A stretch of 64,000 bases of DNA from an uncultured Phycisphaerae bacterium (GTDB lineage: Bacteria; Planctomycetota; Phycisphaerae; UBA1845; PWPN01). The position numbers and the translations under genes were made by a program. Below are positions 2,335-36,549 of this stretch, piece by piece; within the stretch, counting starts at the first letter, position 1, and each line of letters begins with the position of its first letter. Where the stretch lies: positions 19,413-83,412 of the forward strand of contig CALLOB010000005.1 in NCBI GenBank assembly GCA_938005315.1. The letters run 5' to 3'. The notes beneath the pieces were generated by a model that was not told where the DNA came from, did no database searches, and saw only the letters and a program-made list of their open reading frames with translations.

Positions 2335-4671
2335 ATGGTGAAAAGGTCTCATCGTAAGGCCGGATCGGCGAGCAGGGTCGTCGGCGTGTCCGTGGTACTT
2401 GCACTGGCCGGGCAGGCCGTGGCGGCCGAGCTTCTGGTCACCAGCCGCCTGACCAACCAGGTGCTCGAGTTCGACGCCTCCACAGGGGCGTTCGTCGGCA
2501 TCTTCGCCGGCGCCGGAAAGGACGGTAGCGGGCTGCAGGATCCCCGCGGCATCCTGCTGGGTTCCGACGGCAACATCTACGTGGCCAGCTATGCCACCGA
2601 CAGCGTGAAAAAGTACAGCGCCACCGGAACCTACATCGGCGACTTCGTCACCGCCGGCAGCGGCGGCCTGGACGGCCCGGACGGCATGACCTGGGGCCCG
2701 GACGGCAACCTGTACGTCAGCAGCAACCTGAACCACCGCGTTTTGCGGTACCAGGGGCCCGGCGGGGCCTCGCCCGGGGCGTTCATCGACACCTTCGTCA
2801 CCGCCGGAAGCGGCGGACTGAACCAGCCCAGGGGCCTGATGTTCGGCAACGATCAGTTCTCGCCCGGTCCGGTGATCCCCGGCCCGGCCCAGGACGGCTA
2901 TCCCGAGCTGCTGGTCTGCAGCTGGGGCAGCGGCAAGATCCTGCGGTACAACGGCCAGGCCACCCCGAGCCTGGCCGCCGGCGCGTTCCTGGACGTCTAC
3001 GCCGACGCCGCCAATGTTCAGCACCTGATCTTCGAGCGGTTCGTCGAGGACAGCTGGCGCTACGACCGGATCGTCAACGGCAACATCCTGGCTTCGCTGG
3101 ACGCCGGCAACCTGATCGGCATCTACAGCGGCACCTACTCCAAGGCCGAGCACTTCATCGCCACCGGCATGGATACCAACTTCTACGGGCCTTTCTACGT
3201 CGAGCAGCTGTCCTCGCCGCGCGGTTTGGCCTGGGGTCCGGACCGCGGTAGCAACGGCAATGTGGGGTCCAGCTACCGCGACGGCTTCAATGACCTGGCC
3301 ATCGCCAACTATATCTGGGACAACATCCGCGTGGCCGGGGCCGACGAATCCGACCTCGGCATTCTCGTGGCTGCCAAGGCCGGCGGCCTGGACGGACCGA
3401 GCTACCTGCTGTTCAAGTGCGGCGACAAGACGCCGACGCTGGTCCGCAGGGTGGTCAACAACAATGCCCTCCTGGGGAGCACGCATACTCTCCGCCTGCA
3501 GGGCGACAACCTCGCCAGCATCACCGCCGTCCGGCTGCGCAAGATGCGCGACAGCGGTTCGCTGGCCAGCGACGGCACCGGCCGGATCGACGGCTTCAAC
3601 CTCCGCATGGACGGCAACGACGTGCTGGTGGACTTCAACCTGACCGTCAACTATCAGGGCAACCCCGTGGAGTGCGGCCGATACATGGTCCAGCCGTTCG
3701 ACTCCTGCGGCATCAGCAACTGGATGCCCGACACCGTCCTGGTCTACGCCCCCGAGCTGCTGAACACCAGCTTCGAGGAAGGGTATGTGGTCGATCCCCG
3801 GGAGGCCAACAATGTCTGCGAAAACCCCAGCCAATGGGACCCCAACGGCGGCGGCAACAAAACCAAGCCCAAGCACTGGGACGTGCGGAAGTACGGCTGG
3901 CAGACTCAGCTCGACATCAAGCGGGACGGCAACGTGTGGCATCCCTGCACCAGCCCCACCGGCCCCGGCAGCTACGCCGAGGGCATGACCGGCGATCACT
4001 ACGGCAGCATCCACTGCAACATCTCCAACGACGACGAGGCGGTGATGTGGCAGACCATCGCGGCCCCCGACGTCAGCACCAAGCCCTACCGTGTGTATGT
4101 CGATGCCCACATGGCCAGCTTCGAGCGGCTCAGCTACGGCTACATCCGGCTGATCGACGGCATCGACAGGATCGGGGCCGGGGTGGTCATTGCCGAAACG
4201 CAGATCCCCAACACGCAGACCATCGACGACAACGCCATCGTCCGCAGTCCGGACTTCGTGGCCACGGTGCCCCAGGGCTACGTGTTCCAGTCGGATCCGC
4301 CGCTGCTGACGGTGATGTTCGTGCTCAAGTCGGTGACCGGCGACGTATGCCCGGCGGGCTCTCCCGACTGCGGCTATCCCACGGTCGATCTGGCGCTCAA
4401 GGGTCTGCACCTGGACGCGGTCCGCAACACGTTCCAGCCCTGCCCGAACAGCCCGTGGGCGGATACCGACAACGATGACGATGTCGACAGCGACGACTTC
4501 GCCTTCTTCCAGCGCTGCCTGACGGTGGGCGACAACCAGCCGATGGACCCCGCCTGCCAGTGCCTGGACCGCAACGGCGACAACCTGATCGACATCGAGA
4601 ACGACTTCGTCCAGTTCCAGCTGTGCGGAACCGGACCGGGCGTGACCACTGTCGCTCCGGGTTGCGAATAA
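2335..4671 (+). CDS. Large secreted NHL-repeat (beta-propeller) protein with two C-terminal dockerin/EF-hand-like repeats
   Basis: This is the frame of ORF 2128..4671. I place the start at ATG 2335, preceded by gaaaGGAGcgggtc, which gives MVKRSHRKAGSASRVVGVSVVLALAGQAVAA. NHL-like repeats are present (GILLGSDGNIYVASYATDSVKKY, GMTWGPDGNLYVSSNLNHRVLRY). The C-terminus is DTDNDDDVDSDDFAFFQRCLT...DRNGDNLIDIENDFVQFQLCGTGPG. Confidence 0.75.
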   Translation: MVKRSHRKAGSASRVVGVSVVLALAGQAVAAELLVTSRLTNQVLEFDASTGAFVGIFAGAGKDGSGLQDPRGILLGSDGNIYVASYATDSVKKYSATGTYIGDFVTAGSGGLDGPDGMTWGPDGNLYVSSNLNHRVLRYQGPGGASPGAFIDTFVTAGSGGLNQPRGLMFGNDQFSPGPVIPGPAQDGYPELLVCSWGSGKILRYNGQATPSLAAGAFLDVYADAANVQHLIFERFVEDSWRYDRIVNGNILASLDAGNLIGIYSGTYSKAEHFIATGMDTNFYGPFYVEQLSSPRGLAWGPDRGSNGNVGSSYRDGFNDLAIANYIWDNIRVAGADESDLGILVAAKAGGLDGPSYLLFKCGDKTPTLVRRVVNNNALLGSTHTLRLQGDNLASITAVRLRKMRDSGSLASDGTGRIDGFNLRMDGNDVLVDFNLTVNYQGNPVECGRYMVQPFDSCGISNWMPDTVLVYAPELLNTSFEEGYVVDPREANNVCENPSQWDPNGGGNKTKPKHWDVRKYGWQTQLDIKRDGNVWHPCTSPTGPGSYAEGMTGDHYGSIHCNISNDDEAVMWQTIAAPDVSTKPYRVYVDAHMASFERLSYGYIRLIDGIDRIGAGVVIAETQIPNTQTIDDNAIVRSPDFVATVPQGYVFQSDPPLLTVMFVLKSVTGDVCPAGSPDCGYPTVDLALKGLHLDAVRNTFQPCPNSPWADTDNDDDVDSDDFAFFQRCLTVGDNQPMDPACQCLDRNGDNLIDIENDFVQFQLCGTGPGVTTVAPGCE

Positions 4672-5866: not shown

Positions 5867-7396
5867 TCACATCCGCCGATCCAGCCGCCGGTACATGACC
5901 GCCTCGGTGAGGTGCTCGGCCCGGATCGGCCCGCCGCCGTCGAGGTCGGCGATGGTGCGCGCGACCCGCAGGATCTTGTCATGGGCCCGGGCGCTGAGCC
6001 CCAGTTCGGTAAGCGCCTGCCGCAGCAGGGCCTCGCCGGCCGGGTCCAGCACGCAGTGGCGGCGGAGCTGGCGGGGACCCATCCGGGCGTTGAGCATGGT
6101 GGTGCCGTCGCCGAACCGCTCGCGCTGCACCTGCCGGGCCCGCAGCACCTGCTCGCGCATGGTCGCGCTGTCGCTGCCCTCGCGGCCGCCGCGCAGCTCG
6201 CGATACGGCACCGGCGGAACCTCGATGTGGATATCGATCCTGTCGATCAGGGGCCCGCTGATGCGCGAGAGGTACTTGTCGATCTGGCTGGGCGAGCACT
6301 TGCAGGGTTTGTTGGGGTCGGTGAAGTAGCCGCAGGGACAGGGGTTCATGGCGGCCACGAGCATGAACCGCGCCGGAAACAGCACCGAGGCATGCGCCCG
6401 GGCGATGGTCACCGTGCCGTCCTCCAGCGGCTGACGCAGCGTCTCCAGGATCGTCCGCGGGAACTCCGGGAACTCGTCCAGGAACAGCAGCCCGTGGTGG
6501 GCCAGCGAGACCTCGCCGGCTTGCGGCACCGTGCCCCCGCCCACCAGGGCCGGACCGCTGGCCGAGTGGTGCGGGCTGCGTACCGGCCTGCGGGCCATCA
6601 ACGGCTCGCCGGGCGGCAGCTTGCCGGCAGCCGACCAGATCCGCGTGGTCTCCAGCGACTCGGCCAGCCCCAGCGGGGGCAGGATCGTCGGCAGCCGCTT
6701 GGAGAGCATCGTCTTGCCGGTGCCCGGCGGCCCGATCAGCAGCACGTTGTGCCCGCCGGCGGCGGCGATCACCAGAGCCCGCTTGGCCGACTCCTGCCCG
6801 CGGACCTCGCCGAAGTCCACGTCGTACTGCGAGGCCTGCCCGAAGACCTCGTCGATGTCGATGGTCGTCGGCTCCAGCGGCAGCTGCTCGTTCAGAAAGC
6901 CCACCGCCTCGGCCAGCGTGCCGATGCCGATGACCTCTACGTCGCCGACCACTGCCGCCTCGGCGGCGTTCTCCCGCGGCACCAGCACGCCGGCCAGCCG
7001 CCGGTCGCGGGCCAGCATGGCCATCGACAGCGCCCCGCGGATCGGCCGGACCCGCCCGTCCAGGGCCAGCTCGCCGGCGATCAGGTAGCGACCGACCTTC
7101 TCCGGCGTGCCCTCGCCCCCGGCGTAGATCATGCCCAGAGCGATCGGCAGGTCGAACGCCGGGCCCTCCTTCTTCGTGTCCGCAGGGGCGAGGTTGACCA
7201 CCGCCTTGGTCCGCGGCCAGTCGTAGCCGCTGTTCCGCAGCGCGGACCGCACGCGCTCCAGGCTCTCCTTGACCGCCGCATCCGGCAGCCCCACGATCAC
7301 CGGCGGGGCCATGCCCGAGGAGGCCACGTCCACCTCGACCTCGCAGCCGATCGCATCGATCCCGACCAAGGCCATGCTGTGGAGACGTGAGAGCAT
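5867..7396 (-). CDS. comM: YifB/ComM family Mg-chelatase-like AAA ATPase
   Basis: The N-terminus is MLSRLHSMALVGIDAIGCEVEVDV. Walker A is GPPGTGKT and Walker B is LFLDEFPEF. The C-terminal helix LSARAHDKILRVARTIADLDG is present. The start is trimmed to the second Met (7396). Confidence 0.85.
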   Translation of the reverse strand: MLSRLHSMALVGIDAIGCEVEVDVASSGMAPPVIVGLPDAAVKESLERVRSALRNSGYDWPRTKAVVNLAPADTKKEGPAFDLPIALGMIYAGGEGTPEKVGRYLIAGELALDGRVRPIRGALSMAMLARDRRLAGVLVPRENAAEAAVVGDVEVIGIGTLAEAVGFLNEQLPLEPTTIDIDEVFGQASQYDVDFGEVRGQESAKRALVIAAAGGHNVLLIGPPGTGKTMLSKRLPTILPPLGLAESLETTRIWSAAGKLPPGEPLMARRPVRSPHHSASGPALVGGGTVPQAGEVSLAHHGLLFLDEFPEFPRTILETLRQPLEDGTVTIARAHASVLFPARFMLVAAMNPCPCGYFTDPNKPCKCSPSQIDKYLSRISGPLIDRIDIHIEVPPVPYRELRGGREGSDSATMREQVLRARQVQRERFGDGTTMLNARMGPRQLRRHCVLDPAGEALLRQALTELGLSARAHDKILRVARTIADLDGGGPIRAEHLTEAVMYRRLDRRM

Positions 7397-32336: not shown

Positions 32337-32410
32337 GGGCGTTTAGCTCAGTTGGCTAGAGCGTACGGATCACACCCGTAAGGTCACTGGTTCGAGTCCA
32401 GTAACGCCCA
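32337..32410 (+). tRNA. tRNA-Val (anticodon CAC)
   Basis: I folded the cloverleaf by hand. Acceptor GGGCGTT/AACGCCC; D stem GCTC/GAGC; anticodon stem TACGG/CCGTA; loop AT-CAC-AC; variable loop AGGTC; T arm ACTGG-TTCGAGT-CCAGT; discriminator A. No CCA is encoded. 74 nt. Confidence 0.9.
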
Positions 32411-32540
32411 TCTCTTTCTTGCCTGAACCCTGGTCAGTGGGAATGTTGCGGTTCCAAGCGCGGTTGGTCGCCGCGAGAAGTGCCGCAGTGCACGGCAGGC
32501 GGCGCGGGCGCGGTCGTCTCGCCGGGTCGCGGCGATGTCG

Positions 32541-32639
32541 GTCGGATAAGGGGACACGGTCGGACAAGGGGACATTTGCATTGGTCGCAAAAGTCGGACA
32601 AGGGGACATTTTCATTGGTCGCAAAAGGGGACATTCTCC
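32541..32639 (+). repeat. Tandem 34-nt direct repeats with core AAGGGGACAT (2 full and 2 partial copies)
   Basis: GTCGGATAAGGGGACAC is followed by two near-identical units GTCGGACAAGGGGACATTT(G/T)CATTGGTCGCAAAA at 32559-32592 and 32593-32626, then AAAGGGGACATTC. The same 13-mer is inverted at 32787-32799. Confidence 0.85.
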
Positions 32640-32880
32640 TTTTTGATTGTCCATCCCACTTTTTGATTGACAATCGCGTGGGATTCTGCGGCGTAGCGTG
32701 AACCGGGGCACCCCCTGAGGTTCGGAAACGTGCCCCCGCGGACGGCCGTGGAAGCCTCCCCCAAAACCCAAGGCGGCACAAAAGTAGAATGTCCCCTTTG
32801 ACATGTTTGCGGACCGAACCGCCGGAAACGAAACGGCGCGAACACCCGCACCAGATGGGACCGGCCCGGCGACCGGATGC

Positions 32881-35800
32881 TCAACCCGCTTTGGCGGCGG
32901 CAAGACCGTGGGTTCGCAGCTCGGGCCAGCGGACCGGAACGACCGGACCTCGCCCCGTGGATTCCTCTGCGTCGGCCGCGCCGATCTTACGGGCGGGCGG
33001 GCGGCCGGCCATGTCGGCGGCACTGCGCGCGATCGCGGCCAGCAATTCCTTGACGGCGGATCCGGCCTCCGAGCCCCGATCGACCAGTTGCCGCAACTCC
33101 TCGGCCACCCCCTCGGCATGACCGACCAGGGCGTCAAGCTGCGCCCGGGATTGACGGCTCTGTTCCTCCAGGCGCCGCCGTGCGACGGCCTCGACCCGCG
33201 CGAGACGCTGAGCCCACTCCTGCTGGCGTTCCTCGGCCTGGCGGAGGCTGTCATGGACCGCATCGTTGCAGCGCTGCAATGCCTTGAGGATGCCCGCCGA
33301 CGACCGGGCCGAGGTCTTGAGCTGCTCAGCCTGAGCACGAACGGCGTCGGCGTTTTCCGACCAGCCCGCCAGCGCCTCGGTCACACGTCGAGCGGAATCC
33401 TCCAGTTGCGTCCCGACGGCCTGGGCCTGCTCGATCAGCGTCTCCAATCGATCGGCCTGGGCTAGAGCCTGTTCATTCAGCCGTCCGAGCCGGGCGGCCG
33501 CCTGCGGGGCGAGTTGGATCTTCACCGGCCGCGGGCGCTCGCGTTCCTCCAGCAGTCTGATGCGCTGGGTCAGGGTTTCAATGACCTCGACGAAGGTCTG
33601 GGCGTCGCTGGCTTGCCGTCCGCCGATCTCGCCCAGACGCGACTTCAGCCCCTCCAGCGCCTGAGTGATCGACTCCTGTGCCGCGCGGAATGTCGCCACC
33701 GGCGTGGAGGAGTTGGCCAGCTGCTCGACGCTGTCCCGCAGCGTTTGCCAGCGGGCCCCCAGGTCGCCGAGACGCTCTTCGTGGCGGCGACGGGTCTCCT
33801 GCAGGCGGGCCAGCAGCGCCCGCACATGCTGGTCGTGCCGTCTGCGGAGTTCGGCCACGTCCTCGTTGGACGCGGCGCGGGCCTCCAGGGCCTGCAGCGC
33901 CGCGCCGGTCTGGTCGCAGCGTCCGTTGACCTGGCGGATCGCCTCCTCCAGTTCCGACTTGCGGGCTGCCACCAGAGCCTCAAACCGCTCGCTGAAGCTC
34001 GCGACCAGGGATTCCAGTTGCGCGCGGCTCTCGCTGACGGCCGTTCTGACCTCCTCGGCGTCGCGGGCCTGCCGGGCGCGCAGCGCCTCCACAGCGACAC
34101 GATCGGCGGCGCGCTCGCGCAGTGCCTCCAGCTGCTCCTGAGTGCGCTCCCAGCGGGACAACGCGCCGTTCAGCCGCTCGTCCATCGACCGCCGGATGCC
34201 CTGCAGCTCCTCCAGCAGACCTTCCACGTCCTGCCGCTGACGGGCGACGAGTCCGGCGAGCTCCTGGCCGCCGGCCTGGGCCGTGCGGCTCAGGCGGTCG
34301 ATTTCCTCCTGGGCGGCGCGGCATAGCGCCTCGAGTTCGTCGAGCCGTCGCCTAGCGTCCTGCCGGCCGGCGGCGATCTCGGCCGTCAACCGCTCATCCA
34401 GCTCGCGCCTCTGGGCGTCCTGCTGTTCGCGGGCCGCCTCCAGGTCTTCCCGGCGGGCGAATTCCTCGGCCAGGACCGACAGCTGCTCCCGGATGTCGGC
34501 ATGCTGGCGGACCAGGCGCTGTCGCAGCCCGGACAGCTCGCAGGCCTCGTCGACAATCCGCTGAGCCAGTTCCTCGAACGCCCGACGCTGCTCTCCGGAA
34601 AGCTCCGCCGCCCGGGCATCGACCTGCCGGCGCATGTCCGCCAGCTCCAGGGCCTGTTGCGCGAGTCGGTTTTCCAGCTCGCCCAGCGCCCGTTCCTGCT
34701 CGTTGCGGACGTGCTCCAGATCGTGCAGGGAGGGCGTCTGCTCGCGCAGGGCGGCCACAGAGGCAGCCACCGCCTCGAGCCGCTCCCCGATATCCCGGGC
34801 CAGCGCCTGCCCGGCGGCCTCGCAACCGGCCACCCTGCTGCCCAGGCGCTCCAGCGTCTCGGCCTGGGCCGCCTGATCGCGCTGCTGCTGGGCCAGTTCC
34901 TTGCCCAGACGCTCCAGCGTCTCGGTCCGGGCCGTCTGATCGCACCGCTGCTGGGCCAGTTCCTCGCTCAGACGCTCCATGTCGCGATCCTGTCGCTCCT
35001 GGTTGAGGGCAAGCGATGCGATGCGGGCTTCGGTGTCCTCGCACTGGCGCTGGATCAGGGGCACCAGTTCAGCGACCTGTGCCTGATAGGCCTCCAGCTG
35101 CCCGACGGCCTCCTCGATGCGTTTCTCGAGCTGGCTCTCCAGTTCCTCGAGCGTCTCGGCACTGACGGCTTCCCGAGCCAGTCCGGCGACGCGCTGGCGG
35201 GTTTCGATCCAGTGTTGCTCGTTCTGCTCGAAGAGCCGCTGGAATTCCTCTCGCTGACGGGCGATTCGTTCCAGCAGCTCAGCCGTACCCTGCTGGTGCA
35301 GGCGTCGGATCTCGTCCAGGGCCTCGGCGGACGAACCGCTCCGGTCGACCCGCTCGATCTGCTGCTCGGCGGCCCGGCAGCGGGCCATGGTCTCGTCAAT
35401 GATCGCGTGCAGATCCTCGCGGCAGATGCCCAGTTCACTGCGGGCGGCGTTCCATCGTGACGCGACCTGGTCGACGATCTCCTCGATCTCCTCGCGCCTC
35501 GGCCGTTCACGGCCGAGCCGGGCCTGCAGCCCTGCGGCCGAGGACTCGATGATCTCCAGAGCCCGTTCGATCCGCCGATGGATGGCCTGCGGCTCCAGAT
35601 CCGGGAGGGTCGAAACCTTCGGGACGCCCCCCTCCACCCCGGCTTCCTGTTCAACACGCTCGGAAACCTGGACGACCTCGGGCCGGACCCCGTAGATGGC
35701 CTCGATGCGGGCCTGGGTCTGTTCGGGCGTCGGCGCGGCCGCCTGCTCCTCGGCCTCCAAAACCTGATCGAGGATGACGTTGTCCACGATCCGGCTGTCC

Positions 35801-36549
35801 AGCCCATAGGCGGTCAGCAGGGCGTTGTCGCAGATCTGGTTGATCACCCGCGGTATGCCCGCCGACGCCCGGAAGATCCGGGCCAGGGCGTGCGGCGTGA
35901 AGACCTCCGTCTCCGGCGGACAGCCGGCGACCGCCATGCGGCTGCGGACGTACTCGGCGGTCTGCTCGGCGGTCAGGGCCCGCAGGTGGAAACGCCGGAA
36001 AAGCCGCTGGTTGAGCTGTCTCATGTCCGACCGTGCGAAACGGTCGCGGAGCTCGGGCTGCCCGAGGATGCAGATCTGGAGGAGCTTGGCGTCGTCGGCC
36101 TCGAGATTGCCCAGCATCCGCAGCATCTCGAAGCTCTCGTCGGGCAGGTCCTGGGCCTCGTCGAGCACCACCACCACCAGCCGGTCGGCGGCGAACTCGC
36201 GGAGCAGGTACTGCTGGAGCGTCTCCACCAGTTGCAGATTGCTGCTCTCGGGCGGGCAGGGAAGGTTGAACTCGGCGCAGATCGCCGCCAGCAGCTGTCG
36301 GGCGGACAGCTGGTTCTGGGTGATGACCGCCACGCTGCCCAGCGGTTCGATCTGGCGGGCGAACATCCGGGCGACAAGCGTCTTGCCGGACCCCACCTCG
36401 CCGGTAATCAGCACGAATCCCTTGCGCTGCTGGCAGGCGTACTGCAGGGTGGCCAGGGCCTCTTCGTGGTCCGGGGTCCGGTAATAGAAGGTCGGATCCG
36501 GGGTGTTGTTGAACGGCGGCCGGTGCAGGCCGAAGTGAGCGCAGTACAT
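32881..36549 (-). CDS. ExeA-like AAA ATPase (PEP-CTERM-locus secretion-ATPase type) fused to a ~950-aa coiled-coil region
   Basis: ORF track, 1222 aa. The N-terminus is MYCAHFGLHRPPFNNTPDPTFYYRTPDHEEALATLQYA. Walker A is GEVGSGKT and Walker B is VVVVLDEAQ. GIPRVINQICDNALL is ExeA/GspA-like. From ~aa 290 onward the sequence is E/R/Q/A/L-rich and heptad-like to the C-terminus. RBS is GGAGAgcgatcc-ATG. No TM segment is visible. Confidence 0.8.
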   Translation of the reverse strand: MYCAHFGLHRPPFNNTPDPTFYYRTPDHEEALATLQYACQQRKGFVLITGEVGSGKTLVARMFARQIEPLGSVAVITQNQLSARQLLAAICAEFNLPCPPESSNLQLVETLQQYLLREFAADRLVVVVLDEAQDLPDESFEMLRMLGNLEADDAKLLQICILGQPELRDRFARSDMRQLNQRLFRRFHLRALTAEQTAEYVRSRMAVAGCPPETEVFTPHALARIFRASAGIPRVINQICDNALLTAYGLDSRIVDNVILDQVLEAEEQAAAPTPEQTQARIEAIYGVRPEVVQVSERVEQEAGVEGGVPKVSTLPDLEPQAIHRRIERALEIIESSAAGLQARLGRERPRREEIEEIVDQVASRWNAARSELGICREDLHAIIDETMARCRAAEQQIERVDRSGSSAEALDEIRRLHQQGTAELLERIARQREEFQRLFEQNEQHWIETRQRVAGLAREAVSAETLEELESQLEKRIEEAVGQLEAYQAQVAELVPLIQRQCEDTEARIASLALNQERQDRDMERLSEELAQQRCDQTARTETLERLGKELAQQQRDQAAQAETLERLGSRVAGCEAAGQALARDIGERLEAVAASVAALREQTPSLHDLEHVRNEQERALGELENRLAQQALELADMRRQVDARAAELSGEQRRAFEELAQRIVDEACELSGLRQRLVRQHADIREQLSVLAEEFARREDLEAAREQQDAQRRELDERLTAEIAAGRQDARRRLDELEALCRAAQEEIDRLSRTAQAGGQELAGLVARQRQDVEGLLEELQGIRRSMDERLNGALSRWERTQEQLEALRERAADRVAVEALRARQARDAEEVRTAVSESRAQLESLVASFSERFEALVAARKSELEEAIRQVNGRCDQTGAALQALEARAASNEDVAELRRRHDQHVRALLARLQETRRRHEERLGDLGARWQTLRDSVEQLANSSTPVATFRAAQESITQALEGLKSRLGEIGGRQASDAQTFVEVIETLTQRIRLLEERERPRPVKIQLAPQAAARLGRLNEQALAQADRLETLIEQAQAVGTQLEDSARRVTEALAGWSENADAVRAQAEQLKTSARSSAGILKALQRCNDAVHDSLRQAEERQQEWAQRLARVEAVARRRLEEQSRQSRAQLDALVGHAEGVAEELRQLVDRGSEAGSAVKELLAAIARSAADMAGRPPARKIGAADAEESTGRGPVVPVRWPELRTHGLAAAKAG
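34841..34980 (-). repeat. 63-nt (21-aa) tandem duplication inside the coiled-coil ORF
   Basis: The units at 34841-34903 and 34904-34966 differ at ~7 of 63 positions by my hand alignment, and a partial third unit follows. The protein units are EELAQQRCDQTARTETLERLG and KELAQQQRDQAAQAETLERLG. Confidence 0.8.

Follow-up and report, generated by a model that had tools for sequence, protein, structure and literature searches.

What occupies the 470 bp between the tRNA-Val gene and an exopolysaccharide locus near the middle of the window, the 64-kb stretch of DNA analysed here, and why are repeats so dense in this segment (32411-32880)? A preliminary description offered three readings of the segment, an iteron or operator array, a MITE-like remnant with terminal inverted repeats, and a structured non-coding RNA, and pointed out that integration scars occur at the 3' ends of tRNA genes.

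Position and gene content of the segment

The GC content of the window is ~70%, but only 61% in 32411-32880 and 55% in 32541-32810. The nearest named relatives of the proteins encoded in the window belong to Phycisphaerae and other Planctomycetota metagenome bins. Because the segment is flanked by the 3' end of tRNA-Val and by a convergent gene for an AAA_22/AAA_16 ATPase, it lies between two 3' ends (Table 1). The ATPase gene is the first of the exopolysaccharide locus, which encodes Poly_export, several glycosyltransferases, a FemAB-like acetyltransferase, a polysaccharide deacetylase, and Wzy_C, and contains two asparagine-synthase-like genes. The terminator-like hairpin of the ATPase gene forms the right boundary of the free intergenic DNA. 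Within the ATPase gene (34839-34979), a 78-nt segment is repeated with an offset of 63 nt and ~90% identity, which is probably a tandem duplication in the coiled-coil part of the protein.

A sister contig (L121; ENA ERZ6863929, 25.9 kb) was found through the flanking ATPase protein and shares 99.96% identity with the window across 9.1 kb. Gene calling on this contig placed no gene in the 470-bp segment.

Table 1. Features of the segment and its borders (window coordinates).
Feature	Position	Strand	Basis and remarks
tRNA-Val (CAC)	32337-32410	+	ARAGORN; Rfam tRNA, 67 bits; context, outside the repeat family
22-bp attachment core	32390-32411	+	L121 alignment breaks here; unoccupied in the window; context
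U1, degenerate motif copy (GTCGGATAAGGGGACACG)	32541-32558	+	AAGGGGACA core kept, TTCTNCTTTT tail lost; comparison with the family logo
U2, variant motif copy, first 34-nt tandem unit (GTCGGACAAGGGGACATTTGCATTGGTCGCAAAA)	32559-32592	+	
U3, variant motif copy, second 34-nt tandem unit	32593-32622	+	last bases overlap the start of U4
U4, canonical motif copy (AAAAGGGGACATTCTCCTTTTT)	32623-32644	+	left terminal inverted repeat of the 176-nt unit
Interior of the 176-nt unit	32645-32779	.	lineage-specific
U5, canonical motif copy (AAAGGGGACATTCTACTTTT on the minus strand)	32780-32799	-	right terminal inverted repeat
Terminator-like hairpin with T-rich tail	32834-32853	-	assigned to the convergent AAA_22 gene; context
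Gene for 1222-aa AAA_22/AAA_16 ATPase	32881-36549	-	Pfam; converges on the tRNA; context

Organization of the repeats

All the repeats listed in the preliminary description are present where it placed them, and they exceed chance: the exact 9-mer AAGGGGACA occurs five times within 260 bp (32548-32798) and nowhere else in the 64 kb, and the central 188 nt fold better than all shuffled versions. The plus-strand copies of the 9-mer start at 32548, 32566, 32600, and 32625, and the minus-strand copy spans 32790-32798. The 34-nt unit, from the array previously placed at 32541-32639, forms 2.0 tandem copies with 97% identity, which span 32559-32627. Together with an 18-nt unit, also present in 2.0 copies (32539-32574), they give the four direct copies of the AAGGGGACA core.

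The inverted repeat, noted before as a perfect 13-bp match, is real and extends to 20 nt with 95% complementarity (32624-32643 and 32780-32799), leaving 136 nt between the arms. The sequence TTTTTGATTG at 32640 and 32660 is part of a 20-nt direct repeat (32632-32651 and 32652-32671, 80% identity), in which the tail of U4, the fourth motif copy, is partly duplicated. The supposed perfect palindrome GATTGACAATC (32665-32675) has 5-nt palindromic arms, but its central base is unpaired, and it is not a fully self-complementary 11-mer. The short complementary sequences are GATTGTC/GACAATC at 32645 and 32669, ATCCCAC/GTGGGAT at 32653 and 32678, and GGGGCAC/GTGCCCC at 32705 and 32730.

These repeats can be described as five copies of one motif, U1 to U5, arranged in the order '++++-'. 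U4 and U5 fit the consensus of the motif family described below fully, whereas U1-U3 keep the core and differ in the tail. U4, the left arm of the inverted repeat, agrees with the consensus AAAAGGGGACATTCT(A/G)CTTTT at the conserved positions, and a predicted single-stranded DNA hairpin pairs U5 with U4. The interior between them holds the tail duplication (32652-32671), both 7-nt complementary pairs, and the GGGGCAC-N18-GTGCCCC hairpin (32705-32736).

Binding sites through which a protein of the host or of a plasmid controls transcription or replication at the locus could be arrayed in a similar way: four direct repeats spaced by 18, 34, and 25 nt and one inverted copy flank an AT-richer core, and a weak promoter-like match is present on the minus strand (32673-32646). 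However, both the 3' end of the tRNA and the stop codon and terminator of the AAA_22 gene are located here, so that there is no promoter to regulate, and the segment contains no credible open reading frame. The reading of the motif as a DnaA box was rejected, since it shares only ACA with TTATCCACA. Also rejected was a small open reading frame on the minus strand (ATG at 32634, 66 codons, following AAGGAG). It reads the 34-nt repeat in shifting frames, its GC3 is ~69% (counted by hand) compared to 80-94% in the open reading frames kept as genes, its Shine-Dalgarno spacing is 1 nt, and no gene was called at this place on the sister contig.

The central 188 nt, folded as DNA, are more stable than all of 200 shuffled sequences (z = -4.4). 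The central segment folded as RNA also surpasses all shuffles, with z = -3.0 for the plus strand and -3.5 for the minus strand, as would be expected of a structured RNA gene of ~180 nt closed by the 20-bp stem. Nevertheless, the inverted repeat accounts for this stability, which is about the same on both strands, and the search of Rfam suggested previously matched only the tRNA, with nothing else in 32411-32880 even at E <= 10. The proposed pseudoknot of the two 7-nt pairs in a-b-a'-b' order was rejected, since its geometry would require a 2-nt loop to cross a 7-bp stem, which by reasoning is sterically implausible, and since it is not conserved.

The tRNA-Val gene as an attachment site

The sister contig contains 8,060 extra bp between tRNA-Val and the repeat segment (L121 9105-17164). 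The genes of this element encode a tyrosine integrase beside the tRNA, HTH_3 and TubC_N proteins, an 800-aa primase-like DUF3987 protein, an HTH_17 protein, and several small open reading frames. The gene set is satellite- or P4-like. The 3' end of tRNA-Val bounds the element on one side, and a 22-bp copy of it, differing at two positions, bounds it on the other. The tRNA-Val gene is a live attachment site, and the window represents its empty state. The inspection of repeats within the 8-kb element itself yielded nothing interpretable.

The nearest relative (L157) is 87% identical to the window in nucleotide sequence over 6.1 kb and is collinear with it to 4 nt past tRNA-Val. The comparison of synteny, proposed in the preliminary description as a check, thus showed that collinearity ends at the tRNA, and the polysaccharide locus is missing from this position in the relative. 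In its place are genes for SRP RNA (6775-6872), dnaX, ybaB, recR, and rpoN, none of which occurs in the window. From this break it follows that tRNA-Val is a rearrangement point. From position 6126 to the SRP RNA gene, the relative has ~650 bp of non-coding DNA of its own that also holds repeats: a 14-nt unit (GAAATGCAGAGTTG), present in ~2 copies, near 6300, and a 22-nt unit repeated 2.5 times near 6650.

Four independent assemblies of the species or a relative (L123, L124, L158, and L159) end ~110-280 bp past the aldo/keto reductase gene, either before tRNA-Val or shortly after its start, and no tRNA was found on any of them. These ends are consistent with heterogeneity of the population at the site.

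The use of tRNA-Val as an attachment site, the stop in synteny 4 nt after it, and the breaks of several assemblies here would fit a scar of integration, in which the segment is the leftover end, with integrase arm-type sites or an iteron origin, of an element that once resided at tRNA-Val. The part of the earlier suggestion that concerns the tRNA therefore stands. However, the 470-bp segment lies outside the direct repeats of the 8,060-bp element and does not differ by a single base between the occupied and empty alleles, the element contains no copy of the motif, and the tRNA 3' end occurs only once in the window. A reading of the polysaccharide locus as an island likewise finds no support, since the tRNA end is not duplicated and the genes of the locus have native GC3, yet the locus is absent at this position in L157.

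A dispersed family of inverted motif copies

Metagenomes were scanned for inverted pairs with the pattern AAGGGGACATTC-N135-165-GAATGTCCCCTT, which specifies 24 bases. The scan identified 55 loci, whereas the number expected by chance was estimated to be well under one. The short core of the motif is AAAAGGGGACATTCTNCTTTT. A 19-base version of the motif had no match in 2.9 million viral contigs, and BLAST searches with the 470-bp segment found no match among plasmids and phages.

The feature common to the 55 loci is a motif of ~22 nt, AAAAGGGGACATTCT(A/G)CTTTT, and nothing else. The logo calculated from 220 unique instances, (G/A)(A/G)AAAAGGGGACATTCT(A/G)CTTTT(T/C), is conserved also outside the searched bases, and the same conservation, AAA before the core and TTCT.CTTTT after it, is present in 102 additional copies that were not selected by the pattern. 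A single copy of the motif is barely self-complementary (AAAAG/CTTTT only).

The interiors enclosed by the inverted copies are unrelated across lineages. That of the 176-nt unit has no similarity to the interiors of the 55 related loci, and no relative of it was found anywhere searched. The covariation analysis recommended in the preliminary description therefore has nothing to work on, and the lack of a conserved interior, added to the Rfam and folding results, makes a structured RNA gene extremely improbable.

Unrelated housekeeping genes adjoin the clusters, among them purD, ychF, rsgA, and genes for a nitroreductase, FG-GAP proteins, and a PEP-CTERM protein. Approximately half of the clusters are located between convergent genes and one between divergent genes, according to a rough count based on open reading frames in 17 longer loci, which include several close relatives and make the count indicative only. 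The occurrence of the motif beside unrelated genes in many organisms, and as inverted repeats flanking transposase genes, is at odds with an operator or iteron array, and this function is considered very unlikely for the segment. A tRNA gene is present in only three of the 55 loci, in none of them closer than ~600 nt to the motif, and the neighbours are ordinary. The integration scar is thereby largely refuted, with little probability left to it, and integrase arm-type sites were rejected on the same grounds, since the element lacks the motif and loci of the family rarely have a tRNA. The position of the cluster beside tRNA-Val appears to be coincidental.

In clusters with many copies, runs of plus copies are mostly followed by runs of minus copies (for example '++++++------' and '++++++++---'). 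This order was found in 59 of 82 clusters, a statistic with some circularity, as a minus copy after a plus copy was itself a requirement of the search. The '++++-' order in the window agrees with it.

Looser searches were less specific. A scan of genome contigs for three copies of AGGGGACA returned CRISPR-like and tandem repeats, and direct comparison recognised none of the at least 120 loci as homologues of the segment, although L091, which was among the matches listed, later proved to be a true member of the family. The three-copy pattern in viral contigs detected unrelated tandem repeats, and the look-alike in L138 encodes a peptide repeat. An Opitutales bin (L055 4371-4440) has three tandem copies of GAGAGGGGACATT, two of which continue as CCTGTCCCCGGTCC. 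They share GGGGACATT with the family but are of a different, self-complementary design.

Association of the motif with Y1 transposase genes

The gene that recurs beside the motif encodes an IS200-like (RAYT-like) Y1 transposase. In L222, a Y1 gene (3001-3669) is positioned between 46-nt inverted repeats (2912-2957 and 3672-3717) that begin with AAAGGGGACATTGCTAAATAA. In the complete genome of Aquisphaera giovannonii (L223, CP042997.1), a Y1 gene (3001-3696) has a plus copy of the motif at 2920, 70 nt upstream, and a minus copy at 3725, ~15 nt downstream. A Planctomycetota bin (L091) contains 11 direct motif copies ~110 nt upstream of a full-length gene for a 236-aa Y1 protein, which scores 60 bits with Pfam Y1_Tnp and 79.2 bits with NCBIfam REP_Tyr_transpos (cut-off 80). 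In L187, a Y1 gene cut off by the end of the contig is preceded, at a distance of ~95 nt, by a motif cluster.

The Y1 proteins narrowly miss the cut-off of the NCBIfam family of REP-associated tyrosine transposases, with scores of 75.6-79.2 bits. They are ~225-236 aa long and carry the HUH (NHFHL) and class 2 Y---NP (RYIERNP) motifs, which are invariant in the alignment (A1). A Bac_DnaA_C or HTH domain was not detected in them. The L091 protein has 7,518 homologues at E <= 1e-20, the best of which mostly lie on contigs of ~1 kb. A 198-aa Y1 homologue without the N-terminus (L221 3001-3597) has no motif copy within 3 kb and an IS110-family transposase gene downstream, and is probably a decayed copy.

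Shorter derivatives are also present. A 187-nt unit with inverted motif copies at its ends carries the 5' untranslated region and the first ~30 codons of the transposase gene (MPRTARASAGGVCYHVMNRGN), and occurs in at least ten different flanking contexts in one metagenome with 90-95% identity. This has the signature of a MITE that would have arisen when an autonomous element suffered an internal deletion. L185, L201, and L188 contain similar remnants, and the pattern of the N-terminal peptide of the Y1 protein was found in eight of the 55 family loci and in none of 164 control loci. As judged from the sequences of these other genomes, the motif of the family thus forms inverted ends around Y1 genes and MITE-like derivatives. 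The link between motif and transposase is an association of this kind, and a tblastn search of the 64-kb window found no transposase gene.

In the copies of the 187-nt unit in L166, L175, L183, L189, L194, L200, L205, and L210, and in a relative in L214, the bases outside the inverted repeats are often mutually complementary but vary from copy to copy, as in CCAGGGGAA ... TTCCCTGG. The targets of insertion may have been palindromic, or the ends may be longer and diverging.

Two loci (L170 11031-13140 and L176 3087-5173) contain a gene for a 386-aa ISL3-like DDE transposase between two complete motif clusters, and in L223 motif copies are present on both sides of a DDE_Tnp_1 gene. The cluster in the window might therefore derive, as a MITE, from an ISL3-like or IS4/IS5-like DDE transposon instead of a Y1 element. 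However, the motif copies nearest to the ISL3-like genes face outward ('- gene +'), opposite to the orientation of terminal inverted repeats, and therefore are not the ends of these genes. The DDE element in L223 has its own ends (AATAGTGTTC...) and appears to be inserted in one motif copy, the right-hand one of the Y1 unit, with a duplication of GGGGACATTCC (L223 3725 and 5232). Moreover, the MITE-like units hold remnants of Y1 genes and not of DDE genes. A DDE origin is accordingly rated as a very small likelihood.

Proposed origin of the cluster

Window positions 32541-32799 are probably a cluster of non-autonomous terminal inverted repeat (TIR) sequences from a family mobilised in Planctomycetota by IS200-like HUH/Y1 transposases of the RAYT/TIRYT type. 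As such, the cluster is a known, already described kind of selfish repeat, REP/BIME-like, between two convergent 3' ends. Among the readings proposed at the outset, the MITE-like remnant with terminal inverted repeats comes nearest, since the inverted pair belongs to a dispersed, Y1-linked TIR family.

The canonical copies U4 and U5 are the inverted ends of a 176-nt MITE- or REPIN-like unit, beside which the degenerate left-end copies U1-U3 are stacked in tandem. Because the window contains no transposase gene, the cluster would be a passenger or a fossil that needs an enzyme acting in trans. Mobilisation by Y1 enzymes through single-stranded intermediates is established for IS608, ISDra2, and TnpA-REP of E. 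coli. By analogy with IS200/IS605 and RAYT systems, a Y1 transposase encoded elsewhere may recognise, cut, and rejoin the ends on single-stranded DNA, and copies may build up at tolerated intergenic sites, mostly at the 3' ends of genes. Slippage could produce the stacked '+++ ---' arrays, as could insertions that recur at existing ends or inside them. The cluster in the window, which has three degenerate left ends and one partly duplicated tail, may be an ageing example. It is possible that the long hairpin affects the host as a barrier between two convergent transcripts.

Some observations fit this explanation less well. One cluster per 64 kb is a low density for a REP-like family, the motif is barely self-complementary, unlike the hairpin ends used by characterised Y1 enzymes, and the Y1 proteins fall slightly short of the NCBIfam RAYT cut-off.

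A more tentative proposal, which we regard as possible but rather doubtful, is that the motif family constitutes a branch within the TIRYT-type Y1 transposases that is active and IS-like. The ~22-nt head is nearly unchanged across many lineages of Planctomycetota, while tails and interiors diverge. Pointing in the same direction are the MITEs that keep the 5' end of the transposase gene and the nested '+++ ---' arrays, which look as if new copies enter beside or inside existing ends. To our knowledge, surveys have recorded few or no dispersed repeats for the TIRYT group, and we know of no demonstration of TIRYT enzyme activity. If the proposal is true, the group gains a clear mobile substrate with a defined recognition sequence.

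Identification of the segment as selfish repeat DNA removes a false lead, whether towards control of the polysaccharide locus, towards an RNA gene, or towards an island scar. It also provides a sharp 22-nt consensus for a TIR-repeat family of Planctomycetota that is tied to more than 7,500 Y1 proteins of ~225 aa in databases (E <= 1e-20). The consensus may be used for masking assemblies, explaining contig breaks, and choosing substrates for TIRYT biochemistry.

Comparison with known systems

The family resembles REP, BIME, and REPIN sequences and their RAYT transposases (Nunvar 2010; Bertels & Rainey 2011, PMC3116915) in being composed of short extragenic repeats whose inverted pairs form long hairpins, in clustering at the 3' ends of genes, and in being non-autonomous, dependent on a Y1 transposase whose gene the repeats flank. 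In contrast to REP sequences, which are imperfect palindromes of 20-40 nt, a single copy of the motif forms no GC-rich palindrome. The 5' GT[AG]G of REP sequences is not conserved, and its equivalent (logo positions 12-13) is GTAG in about half and GCAG in ~30% of the copies. A further difference is the spacing of the inverted copies, which is long and variable, from tens of nt to ~190 nt.

The transposases belong to the same superfamily as those of IS200/IS605 elements (Pfam Y1_Tnp), and the retention of both ends and a tnpA stub after internal deletion is known from palindrome-associated derivatives of these elements. However, IS200/IS605 elements have subterminal hairpins, no terminal inverted repeats, and another Y motif, whereas the family described here has inverted-repeat ends and class 2 Y---NP enzymes.

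The closest counterparts are TIRtrons. In the passages of Di Nocera et al. (2013, PMC3733652) used for this comparison, RAYT-like genes are flanked by TIRs and not by REP hairpins, and the units are called TIRtrons and their enzymes TIRYTs. Many of the TIRs share GGGGWSAS, and the TIR repeats form moderately abundant families that occur as dimers or clusters. In the corresponding passages of Quentin et al. (2018, PMC6006769), TIRYTs are subclass 2.1 of TnpA-Y1, with the consensus GGGG[AT][CG]A[CG] and the class 2 signature Y---NP. The resemblance is as follows: RAYT-like Y1 genes lie between terminal inverted repeats and not REP hairpins (L222 and L223), the TIRs occur away from the gene too, as singles, dimers, and clusters (55 loci with unrelated neighbours), and the proteins carry HUH and Y---NP. 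The core GGGGACAT fits seven of the eight positions of GGGGWSAS, a published consensus that is itself loose, and differs at the last position, which is T and not C or G. The proteins, putative members of subclass 2.1, differ further in their length of ~225-236 aa and in having no detected Bac_DnaA_C or HTH domain. Unlike a TIRtron, the cluster in the window is not accompanied by an enzyme gene. Two further features of the family, nested and stacked arrays and MITE-like units in which part of the transposase gene is retained, are not mentioned in the passages of PMC3733652 considered here.
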